A stretch of 64,000 nt of DNA. It comes from an uncultured Chromatiales bacterium (GTDB taxonomy: Bacteria > Pseudomonadota > Gammaproteobacteria > Poriferisulfidales > Poriferisulfidaceae). The stretch lies in contig CAZGIH010000017.1 of NCBI GenBank assembly GCA_964526195.1, positions 131,888 through 195,887 on the forward strand, given 5' to 3'. Below, piece after piece: positions 3,249 through 25,084 of this stretch; the first letter of the stretch is position 1, and each line of letters begins with the position of its first letter. The position numbers were made by a program, and so were the translations under genes. The notes beneath the pieces were generated by a model. It had not been told where the DNA came from, searched no databases, and worked only from the letters and a program-made list of their open reading frames with translations.

Positions 3249-3872
3249 GTTGCGGCACTCAATCTATGTGACTAAAATAGAATGAGCGGGTTATACTGGA
3301 ATCCCGTCGTTGCGGCTGGCCCTCAATCTCTAAGCGGCTAAAATTGCTCGCCATACACATGACGCCAAGGCACCGTTGCGGCTGGCCCTCAATCTCTAAG
3401 CGGCTAAAATTCGATTGTCCAGTTGATCGACCGCCAGGTGGTTGCGGCTGGCCCTCAATCTCTAAGCGGCTAAAATGATAAGGCTAATAAGCAACTAAAG
3501 CGGTTCGTTGCGGCTGGCCCTCAATCTCTAAGCGGCTAAAATGTGTGGAAGTTTGACATGACGCCCAAGCAAGTTGCGGCTGGCCCTCAATCTCTAAGCG
3601 GCTAAAATCCATGGGGATAATTACCATCCTCAATAATTGTTGCGGCTGGCCCTCAATCTCTAAGCGGCTAAAATAGGTTGACAAATAGACAGAAAGGTAT
3701 TTCAGTTGCGGCTGGCCCTCAATCTCTAAGCGGCTAAAATAAACGAAGGAGGAAGCAGTAATGGATCACCGTTGCGGCTGGCCCTCAATCTCTAAGCGGC
3801 TAAAATATTAGAAACCATGTTCCGTCAGTAGTCAATGTTGCGGCTGGCCCTCAATCTCTAAGCGGCTAAAAT
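3249..3872 (+). CRISPR. CRISPR array: 9 identical 36-bp repeats (GTTGCGGCTGGCCCTCAATCTCTAAGCGGCTAAAAT), 30-bp spacers, plus a degenerate 30-bp terminal repeat at 3249-3278
   Basis: Full repeats start at 3309, 3375, 3441, 3507, 3573, 3639, 3705, 3771 and 3837 (exact 66-bp period). A degenerate copy (gttgcggcactcaatctatgtgactaaaat) is followed by one more 30-bp spacer. The 36/30 geometry is typical of type II-C. Confidence 0.97.
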
Positions 3873-3881
3873 GCAACCACT

Positions 3882-3919
3882 GAAAGCCCTTGTTTTACAA
3901 GGGCTTTCCTTTTATCTTT
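3882..3919 (+). terminator. Rho-independent terminator between array and cas2 (10-bp stem gaaagccctt/aagggctttc, then T-rich tract)
   Basis: Perfect 10-bp inverted repeat with a 7-nt loop, followed on the + strand by cttttatcttt. It would stop array read-through into the convergent cas2. Confidence 0.6.
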
Positions 3920-3944
3920 ATCAGAATTATTCATACTGAAAGTC

Positions 3945-4289
3945 TCAAAAGAGGACTAGTTGGTCCAATTTTTTTTCACCACTTTCGCTTTTTCCGCCCA
4001 CGAAAGTGCGGGCATTAGCGTATTGTTTATCAGTAATTGTCATCATATGTACCTTGCCACGATTTGGCAAGGCTGAACACACCCTCTTCACTTGAGTTTC
4101 AACTGCCTCTTTGCTTTCGGCAAAACGTAAATAGACTGAAAATTGTGCCATCTCAAAGCCGTGGTCAAGCAAAAAATTTCGAAACTTCGTCGCTGCCTTA
4201 CGTTCAGCCTTTGTCCCTACGGGCAGATCAAACATGACATAAAGCCACATCATTCGATACCCGCTTAAAACTGGCCAATGTGTATTCAT
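3945..4289 (-). CDS. cas2: CRISPR-associated endoribonuclease Cas2 (type II)
   Basis: Motif MMWLYVMFDLP...ERKAATKFRNFLLDHGFEMAQFSVY matches type II Cas2. The start at MNTHW (4289) gives an ATGA overlap with the cas1 stop. The ORF-track upstream extension is rejected. Confidence 0.85.
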   Translation of the reverse strand: MNTHWPVLSGYRMMWLYVMFDLPVGTKAERKAATKFRNFLLDHGFEMAQFSVYLRFAESKEAVETQVKRVCSALPNRGKVHMMTITDKQYANARTFVGGKSESGEKKLDQLVLF

Positions 4290-5191
4290 TGTATTGTGCC
4301 TAACGGTCGCGTCCACCGGGGGAATTCTAATTTTTTGGCCTCTCCCGCATAGCAACGGGCAGCAGAAAGAGTCAAGTGGTGGAGGCATGTAGATATTGGG
4401 CTTGCACCAGTATCTGTATCCATGTCGTAAAAAAGAATCCGCGCAAGTTCTGGTTTTGTGTTTTTGTTTACACCAGTAGAACCCTCTTTCGCGAGATTGT
4501 AGACAAGCATATCTGCGGTTGGCCTGAATGGTTCCATTAGATCGTCGGCGAGGGCAAAGGAATTCCCACGTTGTCGGTGAGCTAAGCCCAAACTGGGGTG
4601 AAGTCCAGCACCCATAATTGCCCTAGCTACGCCCGCACGTAATACCGTATACGTGTAATTCAGCATTGCATTGACGCCCTCTGCATAGCGATCACGGCGA
4701 AAATCTTTGCCAAACAAAAGCGGCCAGTATCTACGTGCCGCTTGAGCCTCTATATTCTCTGGATCCCCGGAGCGTACGGAGCGAGCAAGACGATTGAATC
4801 CTTTATGCGTTGTTCCAACTGTTGCGAGAGTTATACCTTGTGCCTGGATTTTTGCAGAAACAATTTGAGCCCAAAGACGCTTACGCAGGGGCTTGGATGC
4901 TGACGCCTGGTCCGATATCCGCCCACCCTGTTCATAATGCCCGGACGCAGTCCAGAGAAAACCAGCCGGTCGATGATTCACACCACATACTACGAGAGGG
5001 ACACAGCGTTCGGTTAATGCAACTAAAAGACTGTTCGTATACGTAATGCCATGTGCACTTGCAATCACTGCTGCCACATCATCCAGTGGAACCCTCCCGA
5101 TCTCCTCGCCTTGTGATTCAATTGTAAGAAAGCCGCGAAACTTACTGATATGGTGGCCATCCTCGGCAATCTCTACAATTCGCCCGGTCAT
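4286..5191 (-). CDS. cas1: CRISPR-associated endonuclease Cas1 (type II)
   Basis: 301 aa Cas1-like protein. Its start overlaps the cas9 stop (TAATG). Confidence 0.9.
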   Translation of the reverse strand: MTGRIVEIAEDGHHISKFRGFLTIESQGEEIGRVPLDDVAAVIASAHGITYTNSLLVALTERCVPLVVCGVNHRPAGFLWTASGHYEQGGRISDQASASKPLRKRLWAQIVSAKIQAQGITLATVGTTHKGFNRLARSVRSGDPENIEAQAARRYWPLLFGKDFRRDRYAEGVNAMLNYTYTVLRAGVARAIMGAGLHPSLGLAHRQRGNSFALADDLMEPFRPTADMLVYNLAKEGSTGVNKNTKPELARILFYDMDTDTGASPISTCLHHLTLSAARCYAGEAKKLEFPRWTRPLGTIQ

Positions 5192-8100
5192 TAGCAGTGC
5201 TTTATCGGGAAAACTCGACCTATAGAATCAACACGTACAAGGCACGCACTTGCTGTCTTTAAGGTGGAATAACTTTTAATTTCGTAACGGAATAGATCGT
5301 CTGGGTCATTATGACGTTCGCCCAACGAACCTGCCTCGTAGTGAGGTGCGAGTTTCAGACGATTAGCCGAAGCATCCAAACTGCAAACTCTATAGATGGT
5401 TCGACCATTCCCAAAATCTGCCTCCACGAGATCGCCATTGTGTACCTTCATAACCAACTCGGCATTGGGATGTTTGTTGCGCCAGTTAGGTGTGAAGTTG
5501 GGTTGGTTGGCATCGAAGACAGTTACGCCTTCACCCAGCCATTTATCCTGCAATGAATAAATCTCAATGCGGTGATTGTCGCCAGCGGAATAGAGCTTAT
5601 AAAATCCATCGCCATGCTCAACTTTGTACACCGATTTTTCCGTTTTCAGTATTCGAATTCTGCGAATGCCGGAGCTTTCTCCAAATTCAGCTAATGCCTC
5701 CTTCAATTTATGACCAGCTCTTTTTGCGGCATCACGGATTTGTTGAAGATCCCGACGCAAAGAAGCATCATGTACGCGATCTATCTCACTATCTGTCAAC
5801 TCACTGATAGGTTTCCGGACAACAAGATTGTATTCTTTTCCTTCGATTGTCGCTTTAACCTCCCCGTAAGCTGTGCCTTCAAGTAGGGCTCCAGAAGTAA
5901 CGTGGATGTTGCTTTGTGCGTTAGGTGGAATTCCATGATCAGGCTTATGGCTAACAACCAATTTCTTCATTGAATTATCCAGTGCCTCCCAGTACCCCGA
6001 AAAAGGAATTGGGAAACTATTGTTGGGGAAAAGTCTCTCAAGATTCAATTCTTCGGAGCGACCTGATGCTTTTGATATCTGATCCAGCAACCCTATGTCA
6101 GTGCAGGCCAGAACAAACGCATCGACAGCGTGGTGTCTATGGTCTTTCCGATTTTTAATCTTTGTGCCACCTCCGGTTTGGATTGAAGGAATGGCACCAA
6201 GTCGCCACCGAGCTCGTAGCATCGCGGTAAGTCGTCCGGGAGAAGCATCGACACGTTTGCAGATATGCTCAAGATAAGTCTTTGCAAGGCGCGATACGTA
6301 CTGTGTGTCTGTTAGGTGTCGAGCTGCAAGGCCACCTTTCTCCTCAAAATCCTCCATGGCATCAGGAAAGAAGCGCCAAGCTTTTCTGGGAATAACCCGC
6401 TCAGCACGCTCAGCGATTTCAAGAAGTTTTTGGCCGTGCCATGCTTCAGCAGGTGCCTGGTTTAGTTTTTCCCGATTACTTTCACGTGTACACAACACCT
6501 TATTCATGAAACCGTCGTCAAGTGTGCGGGAATAAGGCAAAATATGATCTATTTCTATTTGATCACTGAACAGCGCGCACTTTGATATTTGTTCTCCCGT
6601 GTAGATGCACACTCGTTCATCTGGGGGGAGTTCGTGATACAGTCGCAGGCGAAGCCTGTTTGCATATGTGTCTTCTTCATTCAATGCATTGAGCTGGTCG
6701 CGGTTCCTGTCGTTCGCTTCTCTATTATCTTTGTTTTTCTTGTTTTCTTTTTGCTTACGCTCCTTACTCCACTTCAGTTCACGAGCTAGTTCAACCACAA
6801 TCCCATCTGGTGGGCCGTATGTCGCTATTAGCGCATTGATGATCTTGCGCAGTTGATTGAGTCCAATATGGACAGTCGGATTGGGCACTCTCCCTATCCG
6901 GTCCTGGCTCCCTTCTGGGGCAGATGGTCGAGAGATGACATGACGCGCAAGCACTTCACCATAGTATGGAAGTTTGGTCTGTTGATCGGGCCTCAGATCT
7001 GAGTGGTGTTCATCAATACGCTGGACAGCTTCGTCATAGGTTAAAGGTCGCTGATATATTTCTCCAGTCTCCGTATTCGTACATTCTTCCGATTCAGTTT
7101 CCATAACCCGGACAATATCACGCAACACTGAGCGGCCAAAGTTGCCGTGACCTTGAGGCAAACGCACATCAGAGATTTTCTCGGCCGCCTCCTGCTTCAG
7201 GTTAAATTTGTCTTGAAGCCACTGGTGAAGGCGTTCTTCATCCTCGTCAGACAAAAGACATTCTATAATCTCGTCTTTAGCCGTGCTGGTAAGTGAATCC
7301 CAAGCCTTTCCAAAAGAATTTTTTGCTCTTAGCTTGCTTGCAGTCTGATCCGATTGGAAGCCGTCGCGGCCTAAGCCCTCGTAGTTAAAACGTATGCCAT
7401 CCGGCAGTTGAAGTGCTTTCCTAAGAGCCTCGAATGCGACGACTCTTGATTGCCGCCGCTCCAGTACGGCCACAAGAGCATCGCGCTGGGGAAGAGTCAG
7501 GAAACGCTCCGGGGACCCGGGTCGAACAAGTCGTAGTTGGCACACGTCCTGAAGGATCCGGAATTTCTGAAAGAGCGGATGTGCCTTTGGCGTTCGCTCA
7601 CCCATATCAATTTCAATTCCCTGATACACAAAGACTTTGTTTTCGTCTGGACGCAATGTGCAACGTCCGACAATCTGTGGTTTAAGTGGCCTTTGCTCAA
7701 GGATCGTTTCCCTAATTTTTTCAAGCAATTGTTCAGTGAGAATATCTGGATAGTGAACTTTCTGCTCCGTCCAAATGCAATCAATCTCTTGCTCGACAAG
7801 TTCGCGTGTTGGATAAAAGTCATAGAGATTTTTGCTACCCTTAGATGTCGGCCGGAAGCGCACTGGCGATGGTGAGCCTCCGCCATTGTCATCCTTGCTT
7901 TTCTTGATTCGGTTTCCTTCTCTGTCGATGCGATACCCTTCCTTGTCTCTTCGGTGGCGATTAGCGAGAAATTCGCCAAGCGTCCGAAACTCTTGTTCCT
8001 CTACGATTTTCTCTTTGAGTGCTTGTGCTCCCTGCTTCATCGCACTTTTTTCATTATTATCTGCATCAGAGATCCGATTCGATTTAAATCCTCTTCGTTG

Positions 8101-8487
8101 ATTTATGTGGAACAAGGCACGACCGAGTTCAAACAAATCAAGCCGATGATCCAAAGCCCTGCAACGTAGCCAATAAGGATCAATTTTCTCAAGCTTTTTC
8201 CGCTCATCTTTATCACGAGGCATCAAGCCTGACTCGATCAAAATGGACATTAGACGATCTCGGCGGCGCAAAAAACGGTCCCGACGGCGGCGTGCACTGC
8301 GTGCGTCTCGACGATTTGCAGCCAAGGATGTCTTGGATTTCGGATCTTTTCCCGCTTCATCATTGGGGGTCAAAATGCGCACTCCCGCATCCAACACCCC
8401 CGAGGGGCGCTTATCCGCATCAAGCGTAACGGCACACCAACCAATAGAGTTGGTGCCCATATCCAAACCTAGTCGGTAAGGAGTCAT
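5191..8487 (-). CDS. cas9: Cas9 (type II-C, 1098 aa)
   Basis: RuvC-I at the N-terminus (GLDMGTNSIGWC), arginine-rich bridge helix (RRRRDRFLRRRDR), HNH (IDHILPYS...NKVLC), RuvC-III (HHAVDAFVLA). No csn2 or cas4 is adjacent. Lower GC than the flanking genes. Confidence 0.95.
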   Translation of the reverse strand: MTPYRLGLDMGTNSIGWCAVTLDADKRPSGVLDAGVRILTPNDEAGKDPKSKTSLAANRRDARSARRRRDRFLRRRDRLMSILIESGLMPRDKDERKKLEKIDPYWLRCRALDHRLDLFELGRALFHINQRRGFKSNRISDADNNEKSAMKQGAQALKEKIVEEQEFRTLGEFLANRHRRDKEGYRIDREGNRIKKSKDDNGGGSPSPVRFRPTSKGSKNLYDFYPTRELVEQEIDCIWTEQKVHYPDILTEQLLEKIRETILEQRPLKPQIVGRCTLRPDENKVFVYQGIEIDMGERTPKAHPLFQKFRILQDVCQLRLVRPGSPERFLTLPQRDALVAVLERRQSRVVAFEALRKALQLPDGIRFNYEGLGRDGFQSDQTASKLRAKNSFGKAWDSLTSTAKDEIIECLLSDEDEERLHQWLQDKFNLKQEAAEKISDVRLPQGHGNFGRSVLRDIVRVMETESEECTNTETGEIYQRPLTYDEAVQRIDEHHSDLRPDQQTKLPYYGEVLARHVISRPSAPEGSQDRIGRVPNPTVHIGLNQLRKIINALIATYGPPDGIVVELARELKWSKERKQKENKKNKDNREANDRNRDQLNALNEEDTYANRLRLRLYHELPPDERVCIYTGEQISKCALFSDQIEIDHILPYSRTLDDGFMNKVLCTRESNREKLNQAPAEAWHGQKLLEIAERAERVIPRKAWRFFPDAMEDFEEKGGLAARHLTDTQYVSRLAKTYLEHICKRVDASPGRLTAMLRARWRLGAIPSIQTGGGTKIKNRKDHRHHAVDAFVLACTDIGLLDQISKASGRSEELNLERLFPNNSFPIPFSGYWEALDNSMKKLVVSHKPDHGIPPNAQSNIHVTSGALLEGTAYGEVKATIEGKEYNLVVRKPISELTDSEIDRVHDASLRRDLQQIRDAAKRAGHKLKEALAEFGESSGIRRIRILKTEKSVYKVEHGDGFYKLYSAGDNHRIEIYSLQDKWLGEGVTVFDANQPNFTPNWRNKHPNAELVMKVHNGDLVEADFGNGRTIYRVCSLDASANRLKLAPHYEAGSLGERHNDPDDLFRYEIKSYSTLKTASACLVRVDSIGRVFPIKHC

Positions 8488-20469: not shown

Positions 20470-20674
20470 ATTTCAATCGTAATCAATCTCTATCCCGACA
20501 GGGATTAATATACGATCTTACCCAAGGAGAGATATGAGTATTTGTTCTGGTTTGCTTTTTTCTCTAACTCCATTGCCAGCAGCTATGTTTAGAATTTTCC
20601 TCTATATGGTTAGAACCCTTTCTCTCTCCCAGAAAAAACCATACATTCCTACGAAAACCACGTGGCGAATTATG

Positions 20675-21076: not shown

Positions 21077-21146
21077 ACAATTATTTTACTTCCCTACAAT
21101 AATTAAAGAAAAATTTTGGGAATTATGTAGCAAAATCTGCAAGGGC

Positions 21147-21175
21147 TTGACTTTTCCCAGAAAATAAGATATAAT
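21147..21175 (+). promoter_or_regulatory. Consensus sigma70 promoter for the transposase (TTGACT-17-TATAAT), followed by a 9-bp perfect palindrome at 21178-21204
   Basis: TTGACT 21147-21152 and TATAAT 21170-21175 with a 17-bp spacer. tctgcaaat-N9-atttgcaga lies between the -10 and the ATG and repeats the inner IR sequence (atctgcaa). Confidence 0.6.
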
Positions 21176-21213
21176 AATCTGCAAATAAGGAAATCATTTG
21201 CAGAGAATAAGAA

Positions 21214-22137
21214 ATGAGCAAGAGAAAAGCAGAAACCATCAGCGTCACCCAGTTGCTGAAAATGTTTTCAACCGAGCGCAAGGCCGTGGAATGGCTGGAA
21301 CAGGCTCGATGGGGTGGCACTCCGGTTTGCCCGCATTGCGGTGGCATCGAGAACATTAGCAAGCCGAAGAGCAAGCCGTTCACCTACTGGTGCAAGCCTT
21401 GCCGTAAGAACTTCACGGTCAAGACCGGCACCATCATGCACGCATCCAAGACTTCCACGCAGAACTGGGTGGTTGCCATCTATTCGGTGCTGACTGCCCG
21501 CAAGAGCGTGAGCAGTCTCCAGTTGAGCAAGGAACTGGGCGTACAGCAACGCACTGCTTGGTACATGCTTCACCGGATCCGCGAAGCTTGCCAGCAGGGA
21601 GACTTCAAACTGTTCGGTTCGGTTGAAGTGGATGAGACTTACATCGGCGGCCTGGAAGACAATAAGCATGAGAGCAAGAAACTTCATGTCGGCGGCGGCG
21701 GGGGCGGCAAGCAGGCCGTCTTGGGTATGCGTGAACGCGGTGGCAAGGTGAAGGCCATGCCGATTGCCGACACCACCAAGTCCACCTTGCAGGGCAAGGT
21801 GCATGAGAATGTCCGACCGGGTTCCACGATATACACGGACGAGAATTCGTCTTACACGGGTATCGCGCACCGGCATTACACCGTCAATCATTCAGCGAAG
21901 GAATACGTGAACGACATGGCGCACACCAATGGCGTGGAATCAGTTTGGGCAGTCCTCAAGCGCGGCGTGAATGGAACCTTCCACCATGTCAGCAAGAAGC
22001 ACCTGCATCGTTACCTGAACGAGTTCACCTTCCGTCTCAATGAGGGGAATTGCGAGATTGATACAATCGACCGCATGGATTCCCTGGTCAAGGGAATGGG
22101 CGGTAGGCGCATTCCCTACAAGGAACTGACAGCGTAA
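21214..22137 (+). CDS. IS1595-family transposase (N-terminal zinc ribbon + DDE domain)
   Basis: 307 aa: CPHCGG...CKPCRK zinc ribbon followed by a DDE-type core. Confidence 0.85.
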   Translation: MSKRKAETISVTQLLKMFSTERKAVEWLEQARWGGTPVCPHCGGIENISKPKSKPFTYWCKPCRKNFTVKTGTIMHASKTSTQNWVVAIYSVLTARKSVSSLQLSKELGVQQRTAWYMLHRIREACQQGDFKLFGSVEVDETYIGGLEDNKHESKKLHVGGGGGGKQAVLGMRERGGKVKAMPIADTTKSTLQGKVHENVRPGSTIYTDENSSYTGIAHRHYTVNHSAKEYVNDMAHTNGVESVWAVLKRGVNGTFHHVSKKHLHRYLNEFTFRLNEGNCEIDTIDRMDSLVKGMGGRRIPYKELTA

Positions 22138-22176
22138 GGGTGAATCATGCAAATTGTATAACTATGGGGATTGCCT

Positions 22177-22497
22177 ATGAAAACACTAATAACTACAACA
22201 ATTTCAGTCATGGCCTTGGCCACTCTCTTAATTTCTGGGCATGCCATGTCATATGATGAATTTGAGGGGAATATTCTTCATGAACGTTGCAAGAAAGGAG
22301 ACACGATAGGTCACAGGCGGATGGATATTTTGTTAGGGAAAGAAGATGAAATGTATCAGGCGCTAAAAATGGAGAGTGACCCGAAACAGATAAAAGCCTA
22401 TCTGGAAGCGATCATTGCACTTGACAAAAAAGGTATAGTTCTCGCTGAGGGGACGGATCGGTTTTGTGCATTAACTAATCCCCCGGCGAATAAGTGA
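22177..22497 (+). CDS. Small secreted hypothetical protein (IS passenger)
   Basis: Signal peptide MKTLITTTISVMALATLLISGHA. AT-rich. Confidence 0.4.
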   Translation: MKTLITTTISVMALATLLISGHAMSYDEFEGNILHERCKKGDTIGHRRMDILLGKEDEMYQALKMESDPKQIKAYLEAIIALDKKGIVLAEGTDRFCALTNPPANK

Positions 22498-22604
22498 AAG
22501 ACCGGTCACAATGACTGGCCTTTCTTTAGGGAATTATACGGAAGAATCCGAAAAACCCACCTGTTTCTAGGGATTTATGTAGGTAACTTGACAGGAGAAG
22601 CTTC

Positions 22605-23015
22605 ATGAACAACAAAGCTCAACGCATACTCGAAAATGTTCGACAAATCTTTGCGGTAACGTTGGGGTGGATTGCTTGGCTCCTTATTTTGGTTTGGATA
22701 GGAGCGATAACCATAACTGCCGAACAACACGGCATTTCTTTATTCGGGCCACTCCTTTTAACTACAGTTATTTTGGGCGGGATTTTGGGTGGAATATTAT
22801 TTGTCGGTCTGGCATATTATGCTTTCCCAAAAACAAAAAGAAAATTTCCATTCATTACTGCTTCTATCTGGGCCACGCTCGCTATGATTGTAGGCATAAA
22901 TAATATGGTGATTGATAATAGTAGCGGGCCTGATTACTTTACCTATGGGGCAAGCACGATAATTACATTATTAATTTTTTATGTCTTAAATAGATACCAC
23001 ACCGCCCGGTCCTAA
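22605..23015 (+). CDS. Hypothetical 4-TM membrane protein (IS passenger)
   Basis: 136 aa hydrophobic protein with GGILGGILF repeats. AT-rich. Confidence 0.4.
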   Translation: MNNKAQRILENVRQIFAVTLGWIAWLLILVWIGAITITAEQHGISLFGPLLLTTVILGGILGGILFVGLAYYAFPKTKRKFPFITASIWATLAMIVGINNMVIDNSSGPDYFTYGASTIITLLIFYVLNRYHTARS

Positions 23016-23151
23016 ATCGAACGTCTTTATCTGTCAGCCACGCCTGTCAAATTATCTATATAGTTCCCGGCCTTTCTCTATTGACAAAGGTACAAGATGG
23101 TGTTTAGCATATTGCAATAGGCTGTGCCAGCATAAACAGGTCTAGGGTGAT

Positions 23152-23388
23152 ATGCCAAGAGACATGGAATTAATTAGGATGATTCTGATCTATGTTCGGA
23201 ATCATGCAAAATCTGGTTCACTTGTTTTCCCTTCATTCGCTGGTTATGAAAAGGGGATGGTTGATTATCACGTCATGCTGTGCGAACAAGCCGGGTATCT
23301 CCAGTTGAATGAGGAAACGCTGGACGAAGAACGTCTAATCCTGAACTTGACTTGGGCTGGACACGAATTTCTATCGAAGGGGAAATAA
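23152..23388 (+). CDS. DUF2513 family protein (IS passenger)
   Basis: The N-terminus MPRDMELIRMILIYV matches the DUF2513 consensus (MKRDMDLIRKILL). Confidence 0.5.
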   Translation: MPRDMELIRMILIYVRNHAKSGSLVFPSFAGYEKGMVDYHVMLCEQAGYLQLNEETLDEERLILNLTWAGHEFLSKGK

Positions 23389-23776
23389 TCCCCCTCTTCA
23401 ATGTAATTCCCCTTCCATGGTCAAGAAACTAGACCCCGCCAACCATGAGCCGGTTTCACTGAAAGACTTTCAGGATGCGCTGAAGAGCATCCTGCTGAAA
23501 CCGATAGAGAAAAAGACCCGTTGGGAGAACCGGGAGCCGACCATGAAGGAGTTGTCTGTGAGATTCAAGTTGAAGCGGCGGAAATGACTTTTGCAGATTT
23601 TGCTACATAATTCCCAAAATTTTTAAATTCCATCAAGAAATAATATAGAAGAAAGTGCATGAAATCTACGCTTTTATCTAGTTAAAAGTGTATCATTAAT
23701 ACAGTAATATCTAGGATAAATTGCCGTAAATAAAAATTTATGATAAAATATTTTTGGTAATTCAACATTTTCATTC

Positions 23777-25084
23777 ATGGAAAGACTCGCATACAAAGAG
23801 CTTGTTAAATGGAAAAATCAAGCTCAGCGCAAGCCCGTTTTGATTGACGGGGCGCGCCAAACTGGAAAAACTTATCTTGTCGAAGATCTTTTTGGTGCTC
23901 AAGAATTTCGTCGCGTCCATAAACTTGATTTTCGTGCCAATCCAGAACTAGCCCGCATTTTCGAAGATGGCCTCTCCCCTGCCCAAATTATTGCTAATGC
24001 GGAAATAATGTTAGGCGAACGTATCGCTCCAGAACATGATTTACTGTTCTTCGACGAAGTTGGAGACTGCCAACAGGCAGTAGACTCACTTAAATATTTT
24101 GCTGAGGATATGCCGACCGGCTATATCTGTGCTACTGGATCAAATATCGGGTTGTTAGATTCTTTTCCTGTCGGAAAGGTTGAAAGTCTCGAGTTGTTTC
24201 CGTTATGTTTCGAGGAATTTTTACGAGAATTGGCATCCGAACCAGTACTAGACGCATTCATCCAGAACCGTAGAGGAGCCGCAATTCACCAAAAACTTTG
24301 GCAATACCTATGCGATTATTACTTTGTTGGGGGTATGCCAGAGGCAGTGAGTGCTTGGTCTCATGAAGTTCTCAGCATCCATGATCGAATTGGAATGGTC
24401 GAGGCAACCCACAAAAATATCGTTAGAGGATTTTGCCGTGATTTCGGGAAATATTCCGGTGGCGTACAGGCAATGCACATCGAAGCTGTGTTCCGAAACA
24501 TCCCAATGCAATTGTCTAAAACTATGGATGAATCCGTCAAACGCTATCGCTTTGGTGATGTGATTTCTCGGAAAAAACGTTATCAGGACCTGCGTGGGCC
24601 TATAGACTGGCTCGAAAAAACGCGCCTAGCGTGGAAATCACATCCCATTAGGTCAAGCCCAACGATTCCTCTAGCTCCTTTATGCAAAGAGAATGACTTC
24701 AAACTTTATTTATTCGATGTTGGAATTCTCGGCCATCTCCTAGGACTCAGATATGCCGACCACAAAGGTCAGATGATAGATTACAAGGGATTCATCGCCG
24801 AGAACTTTTTTTTGGTTGAATATCGCTCGCGCATCGGGTATCCGGTCTACAGTTGGGCGCAGAGAGACGCTGAAATCGAATTTCTGCACCGGGATAAGAA
24901 AGGTGTCATTATTCCCGTGGAAGTAAAGAGCGGTAAGCGCACACGGGCGCGAAGCCTTGGATCATATATCGGACGATACCAACCACAGCATGCGGTCAAA
25001 TTCGCCAATATTCAAAGATCGACACAAAGTGGGATTATTTCTACCTGGCCTTTGTACGATGTGCAGTTTTTGCGAAATCTTTAG
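23777..25084 (+). CDS. AAA+ ATPase, COG1373 (AAA_14 + DUF4143)
   Basis: Walker A GARQTGKT and Walker B LLFFDEV; 435 aa. Low-GC gene with an AT-rich upstream region. Confidence 0.75.
   Translation: MERLAYKELVKWKNQAQRKPVLIDGARQTGKTYLVEDLFGAQEFRRVHKLDFRANPELARIFEDGLSPAQIIANAEIMLGERIAPEHDLLFFDEVGDCQQAVDSLKYFAEDMPTGYICATGSNIGLLDSFPVGKVESLELFPLCFEEFLRELASEPVLDAFIQNRRGAAIHQKLWQYLCDYYFVGGMPEAVSAWSHEVLSIHDRIGMVEATHKNIVRGFCRDFGKYSGGVQAMHIEAVFRNIPMQLSKTMDESVKRYRFGDVISRKKRYQDLRGPIDWLEKTRLAWKSHPIRSSPTIPLAPLCKENDFKLYLFDVGILGHLLGLRYADHKGQMIDYKGFIAENFFLVEYRSRIGYPVYSWAQRDAEIEFLHRDKKGVIIPVEVKSGKRTRARSLGSYIGRYQPQHAVKFANIQRSTQSGIISTWPLYDVQFLRNL

Follow-up and report, generated by a model that had tools for sequence, protein, structure and literature searches.

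What is the DNA that lies between two perfect inverted repeats, 2.5 kb apart, in the genome of an uncultured Chromatiales bacterium, and was it inserted as a single mobile unit? The repeats are located in a stretch of 64,000 nucleotides of contig CAZGIH010000017.1 (assembly GCA_964526195.1), in the following called the window. They enclose a transposase gene of the IS1595 family, termed tnp, and four further open reading frames (ORFs) on the same strand, termed orfA to orfD. A previous reading made without database searches, the sequence-only reading, had described an IS1595-family element with perfect 34-bp inverted repeats (IRs), four passenger ORFs and no clean target-site duplication (TSD). 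We conclude that positions 21118-23615 very probably represent an IS1595-family transporter insertion sequence (tIS) of 2,498 bp, which is intact and has entered an intergenic, AT-rich site in a single piece. The termini and the backbone genes of the element are:

21110-21117, no strand: left copy of the TSD, AAAATTTT, identical to 23616-23623
21118-21142, plus strand: left IR (IRL), 25 nt, GGGAATTATGTAGCAAAATCTGCAA, score 35.5 with a position-weight matrix (PWM); the identical 25-mer is present at the element ends in the related loci L002, L003 and L004
21214-22137, plus strand: tnp, 307-aa IS1595-family DDE transposase with an N-terminal zinc ribbon (PF12762, PF12760, NF033547)
23417-23587, plus strand: orfD, 56-aa small protein of the insertion sequence (IS) backbone, ends 3 nt before the right IR; homologues at the right ends of relatives
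23591-23615, minus strand: right IR (IRR), 25 nt, PWM score 37.8
23616-23623, no strand: right copy of the TSD, AAAATTTT, identical to the left copy

The arms at 21109-21142 and 23591-23624 are indeed 34 nt long and 100% complementary, but the true IR comprises only 25 bp. The octamer AAAATTTT at 21110-21117 and 23616-23623 is a perfect 8-bp direct repeat that adjoins both IRs. It is also its own reverse complement and hence reads as eight extra IR bases, and the chance complementary pair A21109/T23624 contributes the last base. Because the TSD is palindromic, a 25-bp IR, an 8-bp TSD and one further base together appear as a 34-bp IR. The 25-nt core GGGAATTATGTAGCAAAATCTGCAA (21118-21142 and 23591-23615, with a mismatch at position 26) is found at only two sites in the window when three mismatches are allowed; shuffled sequences are expected to contain none.

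The extent of the IR was deduced from relatives, which were retrieved by a scan of species-representative genomes. A relative of tnp, with 36-95% identity, is encoded at 37 loci, most of them from metagenome-assembled genomes (MAGs) with names that suggest a marine-sponge origin, and both ends could be defined for 25 elements in these loci. All 25 start with a GGGAATTAT-like sequence, their flanks beyond the GGG are unrelated, and they span 1.38-5.5 kb. Since the IRs of the relatives all start at the GGG and the flanks are unrelated, the true IR has a length of 25 nt. A perfect 8-bp TSD was found in 16 of the 25 elements, and three more have a 7/8 match. The TSDs of the relatives are about 80% A+T, and their host genomes are GC-rich. 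A palindromic target can conceal a TSD within an apparent IR, and at least one relative exhibits the same illusion (L036, ATTTAAAT). The duplication that the sequence-only reading had missed is thus present in perfect form on both sides, with the same length as the TSDs of the relatives, and neither insertion by recombination nor loss of a TSD has to be invoked. According to this model, the uninterrupted target site would have been ...TAATTAAAGA-AAAATTTT-TAAATTCC..., and the junction of an empty site would read ...TAATTAAAGAAAAATTTTTAAATTCC....

The IRs of the relatives were also used to build the PWM, and sites with a score above 8 were accepted. The window contains five such sites, which are all located inside the tIS, and none of them lies between tnp and 22529. 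When the matrix was run on 455 kb of related loci, it matched element ends almost exclusively. A direct repeat at 20601-20625 and 23055-23079 (76%) was judged to be due to chance.

The transposase, together with the IRs and the 8-bp TSD, verified the assignment to the IS1595 family. The tnp product matches DDE_Tnp_IS1595 (PF12762, 8.4e-44, score 149.7 at a cut-off of 27 bits), Zn_ribbon_IS1595 (PF12760, 9.8e-10) and the NCBIfam family transpos_IS1595 (NF033547, 2.4e-60). The cysteines of the zinc ribbon are intact (C39xxC, CPHC at residue 39; C60xxC, CKPC at residue 60), as are the catalytic residues D140 (DETYIGG), D209 (YTD), E242 (NGVESVW), K249 and E270xxxR274 (EFTFRLN). For transposases of the IS1016 subgroup of the IS1595 family the pattern D-E-[ST]-Y-x-G...Y-T-D...N-G-[IV]-E-x-x-W...K...E-F-x-F-R-x-N has been printed (PMC12561309), and the protein encoded in the window fits it. 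The ratio of nonsynonymous to synonymous substitution rates (dN/dS) of tnp is 0.05 in comparison with L002, the locus with the closest relative, and ranges from 0.05 to 0.16 over pairs. A comparison of the tnp sequence with the sequences in the PDB gave no match. Relatives on plasmids have at most 44% identity and are annotated only as 'IS1595 family transposase', and near-identical DNA was not found in plasmids.

That all of the 2.5 kb enclosed by the repeats forms one mobile unit, as had been proposed, is indicated by the TSD, which brackets the full 2,498 bp, and by the right end, which is conserved in L002. The transposase of L002 is 95% identical to that of the window at the protein level. 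The two elements are 88% identical over promoter and tnp (element positions 51-1006) and 86% identical over orfD and IRR (2303-2498), and nothing aligns between these segments. Because only promoter-tnp and orfD-IRR align with L002, the backbone is common to both and the cargo has been swapped. Minimal relatives have the order tnp-orfD-IRR. Judged from these alignments, the backbone is composed of two 25-bp IRs, a near-consensus promoter, the 307-aa transposase and orfD, and the cargo of the window element occupies the slot between tnp and orfD, the same position as the cargo of the relatives. The short relatives are 1,382 bp (eight copies, each at a site of its own, in a single Oxydemutatoraceae MAG), 1,451 bp and 1,459 bp long, and the many long relatives range from 2.1 to 5.5 kb. 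In a Dehalococcoidia MAG, three cargo-bearing copies of 2,270 bp have three different TSDs, and therefore cargo-bearing relatives transpose as a whole.

The conservation of the right end concerns orfD in particular. Almost all relatives, among them the cargo-free IS of 1,382 bp, encode a homologue of 49-64 aa at a distance of about 30 bp from their right terminus. A profile search with orfD retrieved 105 protein clusters of 41-91 aa, which have no Pfam domain and no name except 'hypothetical protein'. Three members of the family were sampled via this protein search, independently of the transposase, and all three follow the cargo of an IS1595-type element at its right end; for one of them (L047) the transposase lies beyond the fetched stretch. 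Pairwise dN/dS values of 0.12-0.35, where synonymous sites are unsaturated (0.12 in comparison with L002), indicate that orfD is under purifying selection. The AlphaFold model (predicted local distance difference test score of 79) is essentially one helix, and a Foldseek search of the PDB with this model gave no fold match. Judged from its distribution, orfD is a conserved core gene of the IS clade and not cargo. Unannotated, selected and conserved, its product offers itself as a concrete candidate for an accessory factor of IS1595. The previous count of four passenger ORFs has to be corrected accordingly: four ORFs do follow tnp on the same strand before IRR, but only three of them are cargo. 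Similarly, the proposed cargo region of about 1.4 kb (22177-23587) does carry genes that are not involved in transposition, but its last part, 23417-23587, is orfD and thus backbone. An imperfect inverted repeat (ATCGAAGGGGAAATA / TAATTCCCCTTCCAT, 87% complementary) at 23373-23418 spans the stop codon of orfC and the start of orfD, and orfD has no obvious Shine-Dalgarno sequence. This repeat may link or limit the translation of orfD.

The cargo within the IRs consists of orfA, orfB and orfC, and it includes a nested unit with IRs of its own:

22177-22497, plus strand: orfA, 106 aa, cargo, with a signal-peptide-like N-terminus (by eye); followed by a terminator-like hairpin at 22502-22518
22517-22528, no strand: left 12-nt direct repeat GGCCTTTCTTTA flanking the nested unit, 11/12 identical to 23069-23080
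22529-23068, plus strand: nested 540-bp unit with IS1595-type IRs and no transposase, similar to a mobile insertion cassette (MIC); orfB is the only gene inside
22605-23015, plus strand: orfB, 136-aa predicted four-helix membrane protein (by eye), passenger of the nested unit; homologues beside IS1595-type IRs
23069-23080, no strand: right 12-nt direct repeat GGCCTTTCTCTA, 11/12 identical to 22517-22528
23081-23110, plus strand: promoter-like site TTGACA-18-TAGCAT upstream of orfC, matching at 10/12 positions; consensus match only
23152-23388, plus strand: orfC, 78-aa DUF2513 protein, cargo (PF10711 5e-16, phrog_585 4e-10)

The gap between tnp and orfA is about 40 nt. In an exhaustive profile-free search, orfA found only itself among 1.84 billion representatives, and it matches no Pfam, NCBIfam, PADLOC or PHROG family. 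For orfC, no close relatives were found in a set of 5.8 billion proteins, no sequence match in the PDB, and no meaningful PDB fold match with a single-sequence AlphaFold model; our literature search returned no paper mentioning DUF2513. The cargo of the window did not match the defence cargo of the relatives described below. The GC content of the cargo is 39-44%, compared with about 57% for tnp and about 60% for the genome, and therefore the cargo is not local host DNA.

The gene orfB has a history of its own. It matches no Pfam, NCBIfam, PADLOC or PHROG family, and the protein search returned only three relatives besides itself. Homologues with 60-62% identity lie directly against IS1595-type IRs in the loci L039-L042. 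L042 has the homologue as the final gene of an IS1595 tIS of 2.9 kb, directly next to the IRR, and in L039-L041 an IR-like site follows immediately after it. A further locus, L043, has retained the IR and the first 40 codons of orfB with 90% nucleotide identity. In the window, orfB is bracketed by two strong arms, 22570-22595 (PWM score 34.4) and, inverted, 23043-23068 (28.9), which match at 21 of 26 positions and belong to the '...AACTTGACA' IR type that is seen in other relatives. An additional IR-like site at 22529-22554 is located 41 bp outside the left strong arm and mirrors the 42-bp spacing of IRL and its degenerate second copy. The 8 bp that adjoin the two strong arms differ (TGTTTCTA / GGCCTTTC). 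Like a MIC, the segment 22529-23068 has IS-type IRs round a passenger gene and contains no transposase gene. We read it as a transposase-less, MIC-like cassette that probably was inserted into the cargo of the tIS and brought orfB with it.

The left end of the element contains the signals that might control the transposase:

21147-21175, plus strand: sigma-70-type promoter-like site TTGACT-17-TATAAT upstream of tnp, 11/12 consensus positions; consensus match only
21176-21184, plus strand: box AATCTGCAA, a direct repeat of the inner IRL end (21134-21142), 42 bp inside IRL and right after the -10 hexamer
21178-21204, plus strand: palindrome TCTGCAAAT (21178-21186)-N9-ATTTGCAGA (21196-21204) in the tnp leader, potential 9-bp hairpin (predicted fold)

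The promoter-like site, the palindrome and the reiteration of the inner IR sequence after the -10 hexamer had been noticed before, and all of them were found again. The 9-mer AATCTGCAA has three occurrences in the 64 kb: the inner end of IRL, the inner end of IRR and the position after the -10 hexamer. L002, L003 and L004 share the IR type of the window, and each of them has a hexamer-17-hexamer promoter followed by AATCTGCA. The same arrangement is present in L013, in which the inner IR motif has changed to AATACACGA and the post -10 box to AATCCACGA, with the same three positions altered in both. In relatives of the 'TTGACA-type', the inner IR motif AACTTGACAA occurs again about 32 bp inside the element and doubles as the -35 hexamer. 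Because AATCTGCAA recurs after the -10 hexamer and covaries with the IR in L013, the box is likely to be a second, putative transposase-binding site at the promoter, and from this site we infer that the transposase may be autoregulated. Of the palindrome, which had been proposed as an autoregulatory or binding site, the left arm is conserved together with the box in L002, L003 and L004 and covaries with the IR in L013; the right arm is retained only in L002, and there as RNA pairing.

This last observation leads to a different explanation, namely that the palindrome is mainly an RNA device. Transcripts that read through from outside would fold the 9-bp hairpin and block translation of tnp, whereas native transcripts would stay open. 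The hairpin of the window leader RNA has a predicted free energy of -9.2 kcal/mol (z = -2.4), and it is lost in an RNA that starts about 7 nt after the -10 hexamer, which lacks most of the left arm and is predicted to be open (-3.6 kcal/mol). Three substitutions (A>G, C>T, A>G) distinguish the right arm of L002 from that of the window, and each of them turns a Watson-Crick pair into G.U; the DNA palindrome is thereby reduced to 6/9, but the predicted hairpin is kept and even lengthened (-9.6 kcal/mol) and overlaps a GGAG. L004 has a different leader hairpin, over GGAG and AUG (-8.4 kcal/mol, z = -2.6). On the other hand, the pairing is maintained in one relative only and by wobble changes, transitions are common, no leader hairpin is predicted for L003 and L013, and the palindrome arm of the window touches only a weak Shine-Dalgarno-like GAGA. 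Moreover, the explanation depends on an assumed transcription start, and it is compatible with protein binding at the left arm. Therefore, a predominant role as RNA device is a tentative possibility, and a guard against read-through, as modelled from the predicted folds, would be a live rival or a complement to the box as a protein site.

Taken together, the following course of events can be envisaged. The transposase would bind the IRs, including the inner motif AATCTGCAA, and would move everything between them, probably via an excised circular copy, by analogy with other IS1595-family elements. The copy of the motif just after the -10 hexamer would allow the transposase to sit on its own promoter and thereby to limit its own synthesis. 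The leader hairpin might additionally mask the ribosome-binding region in transcripts that enter from outside.

How does an intact tIS with 25-bp IRs, inserted as one unit, compare with other explanations of the locus? A one-piece IS with 34-bp IRs and four passengers, with the missing TSD explained by recombination or loss, would agree with the 34-nt perfect complementarity, which is real, and with the location of all four ORFs between the repeats. We consider it most improbable, because the 25 related elements have IRs starting at the GGG and unrelated flanks, the adjoining octamers repeat each other perfectly and have the length that is canonical for the family, orfD belongs to the backbone of cargo-free relatives, and one of the four ORFs, orfB, lies inside a nested IR pair. 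A composite or accidental structure, in which an IS of about 1.1 kb ends at about 22.2 kb, the repeat at 23.6 kb stems from a second, partial copy and the cargo is trapped host DNA, deserves no more credence. The additional IR-like sites inside the element (22529, 22570 and 23043-23068) do indicate more than one IS-derived piece, but they pair with each other round orfB and not with IRL. The sequence-only reading had itself named an end at about 22.2 kb as the finding that would overturn it; no IR-like site is located there, or anywhere from tnp to 22529. Furthermore, the right end (orfD and IRR) is 86% identical to that of the very relative whose transposase is 95% identical, the minimal relatives have the order tnp-orfD-IRR, the TSD brackets all 2,498 bp, and the GC content of the cargo differs from that of the genome. 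A somewhat better case, which still leaves it improbable, can be made for an immobile relic, i.e., a single decaying copy with cargo ORFs as non-functional leftovers. The element is present once in the 64 kb, orfA has no homologues and orfC no close ones, and the nested unit lacks a canonical TSD. Against decay stand the perfect IRs, the intact TSD, the full-length transposase with all catalytic and zinc-binding residues, the dN/dS values of tnp and orfD in comparison with L002, and the 100% identity of the element across independent read sets.

Several observations count against the interpretation as an intact, mobile tIS and have to be set beside its high probability. At the window locus alone, the palindromic TSD is not separable from the IR, and the call rests on the relatives, nine of which (of 25) have no perfect TSD, including the three with a 7/8 match. 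There is a single visible copy and no empty site, and the mobility of this particular copy is what we infer. The ORF orfA, without homologues, is perhaps not a genuine gene. L003, L004 and L013 lack the right arm of the palindrome. Round the nested unit there is a 12-nt direct repeat (11/12) where an 8-bp TSD would be canonical, and the outer IR-like site on its left, 22529-22554, is weak, with a score of 17.4 compared with a maximum of 15.9 in shuffled sequences.

The search for further copies and for an empty site that the sequence-only reading had suggested was run on public contigs and revealed neither, and an exact search of metagenome contigs with the left flank plus TSD, for an empty or an occupied site, gave no match. 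The contigs with an identical transposase or identical flanking genes all proved to be short fragments of assemblies, broken within the IR. In Logan contigs of the same organism (L001, L051, L052), the assemblies break exactly inside the IRs, and the element appears as a separate contig of 2,508 bp. Because the 34-nt complementarity exceeds the k-mer of 31, this element-sized contig is an assembly artefact and does not indicate multiple copies.

The relatives place the window element in a wider context. Annotatable genes in the cargo slot of relatives encode N6_N4_Mtase proteins with or without HNH (fused or following), N6_Mtase together with Methylase_S, type IIG-like proteins, type III mod and res, a SmaI-like nuclease, and TIR-domain proteins. 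Restriction-modification is the cargo in most annotatable relatives, which are mostly from MAGs of sponge symbionts, and therefore the clade seems to carry mainly defence cargo. The clade has the layout IR, promoter, tnp, cargo, orfD and IR, and it is abundant in MAGs that are, by name, mostly sponge-associated. Defence genes and transposases are known to be enriched in such symbionts, and the clade would be a simple vehicle by which this came about.

Some relatives deviate from this layout or add to it. In L003, L014, L025, L026, L029 and L042, the first cargo gene starts within the stop codon of tnp (4-nt overlap), which suggests translational coupling of cargo and transposase in those relatives. 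L003 contains a 104-aa ORF on the minus strand (4640-4954) in about 370 bp between IRL and the tnp promoter; the left end can therefore accommodate cargo or extra sequence as well. Two loci, L045 (1461-2756; LXNI01000015.1) and L046 (2962-6810), have IS1595-type IRs and perfect 8-bp TSDs (ATGGTTTG; TTAAAAAT) and no transposase. Each of them carries a TnpB gene (HTH_OrfB_IS605, OrfB_IS605, Cas12f1-like_TNB) with its 3' end abutting one IR. The TnpB gene of L046 is split by a tIS insertion, and removal of the insertion restores an ORF of 356 aa. Apparently, TnpB rides here on a DDE-type IS1595 system and not on IS200/IS605 or IS607. It is conceivable, although we are rather doubtful, that all this reflects an undescribed IS1595-type shuttle lineage with a fixed cargo slot, orfD, mostly restriction-modification or defence genes among mostly sponge symbionts, and transposase-less cassettes including those with TnpB. 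If it were so, the element of the window would carry a new defence or addiction module as its cargo (secreted orfA, membrane protein orfB, DUF2513 protein orfC), and orfD would act as a new transposition cofactor or regulator.

Two further loci in the window were noted. The gene directly to the right of the tIS (23777-25084, plus strand) encodes an ATPase with AAA_14 and DUF4143 domains, which matches the PADLOC candidate defence family PDC-S01 (3e-105) and shares a low-GC island of about 20.4-25.1 kb with the tIS. A type II system of clustered regularly interspaced short palindromic repeats (CRISPR) and Cas proteins is located at 3309-8487 in an island of 47-48% GC. Its array (3309-3873) has nine 36-nt repeats (GTTGCGGCTGGCCCTCAATCTCTAAGCGGCTAAAAT) and 30-nt spacers, and cas2 (3945-4388), cas1 (4286-5191) and cas9 (5191-8487, 1,098 aa) are all encoded on the minus strand. 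The spacers matched neither the tIS nor the rest of the window.

Comparison with known systems helps to classify these features. In IS10 and IS50, an inverted repeat in the leader folds back only in transcripts that come from upstream, and it blocks translation of the transposase. The leader of the window element likewise has an inverted repeat beside the ribosome-binding region that would form only in read-through RNA; unlike in IS10 and IS50, this hairpin is known from predicted folds and the wobble-compatible changes of one relative. Within the IS1595 family, the element fits what we take to be the criteria of the ISNwi1 subgroup, namely, ends of the type ggnnatTAT (GGGAATTAT in the window), an 8-bp TSD, and DDE-K plus E-x3-R, and its size lies in the range of 1.75-4.75 kb that we assume for cargo-bearing members. 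The cargo-free relatives described here (1.38-1.46 kb) are longer than the approximately 1.1-1.2 kb that we presume for cargo-free members of that subgroup, which is due to orfD.

The nested unit at 22529-23068 and the TnpB elements of L045 and L046 resemble MICs, for example, MIC231 of IS231 in Bacillus cereus (De Palmenaer et al., 2004, as cited in PMC3129680), in that IS-type IRs bracket a passenger, a transposase is lacking and movement presumably occurs in trans. In contrast to MICs, the nested unit is found inside another IS, and its flanking repeat has 12 nt (11/12) instead of 8.

The complete element is a new tIS, of a kind that has been known since 2009. The term denotes an IS carrying passenger genes and goes back to Siguier, Gagnevin and Chandler (2009), who introduced it along with the IS1595 family, as cited in PMC3129680; it is also defined in the TnCentral preprint. 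The window element has one transposase, IRs, a TSD and unrelated passengers within the IRs. The statement that most IS1595 members are about 1 kb long and encode only a transposase had made its size look anomalous; it does carry genes that are not involved in transposition, but cargo-carrying members are an established class. The conservation of orfD, the predominance of restriction-modification cargo and the nesting may be new with respect to the literature that we reached, and the ISfinder curators may have noted them. In annotations, the locus should be entered as a tIS of 2,498 bp, with IRs of 25 bp and a TSD of 8 bp. Its closest described counterparts are tISCpe8 of Clostridium perfringens and MTnSag1 of Streptococcus agalactiae, for which 25-bp IRs, 8-bp direct repeats and a circular intermediate are reported in PMC5704250. 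They share with the window element an IS1595-type DDE transposase, likened here by description only, the IR and duplication lengths, and internal passengers. However, they are found in Firmicutes and carry lincosamide resistance and mobilisation functions, whereas the window element carries three ORFs without functional annotation, orfD and a nested transposase-less unit, and resides in a genome of about 60% GC that is most similar to MAGs of sponge-associated Gammaproteobacteria.

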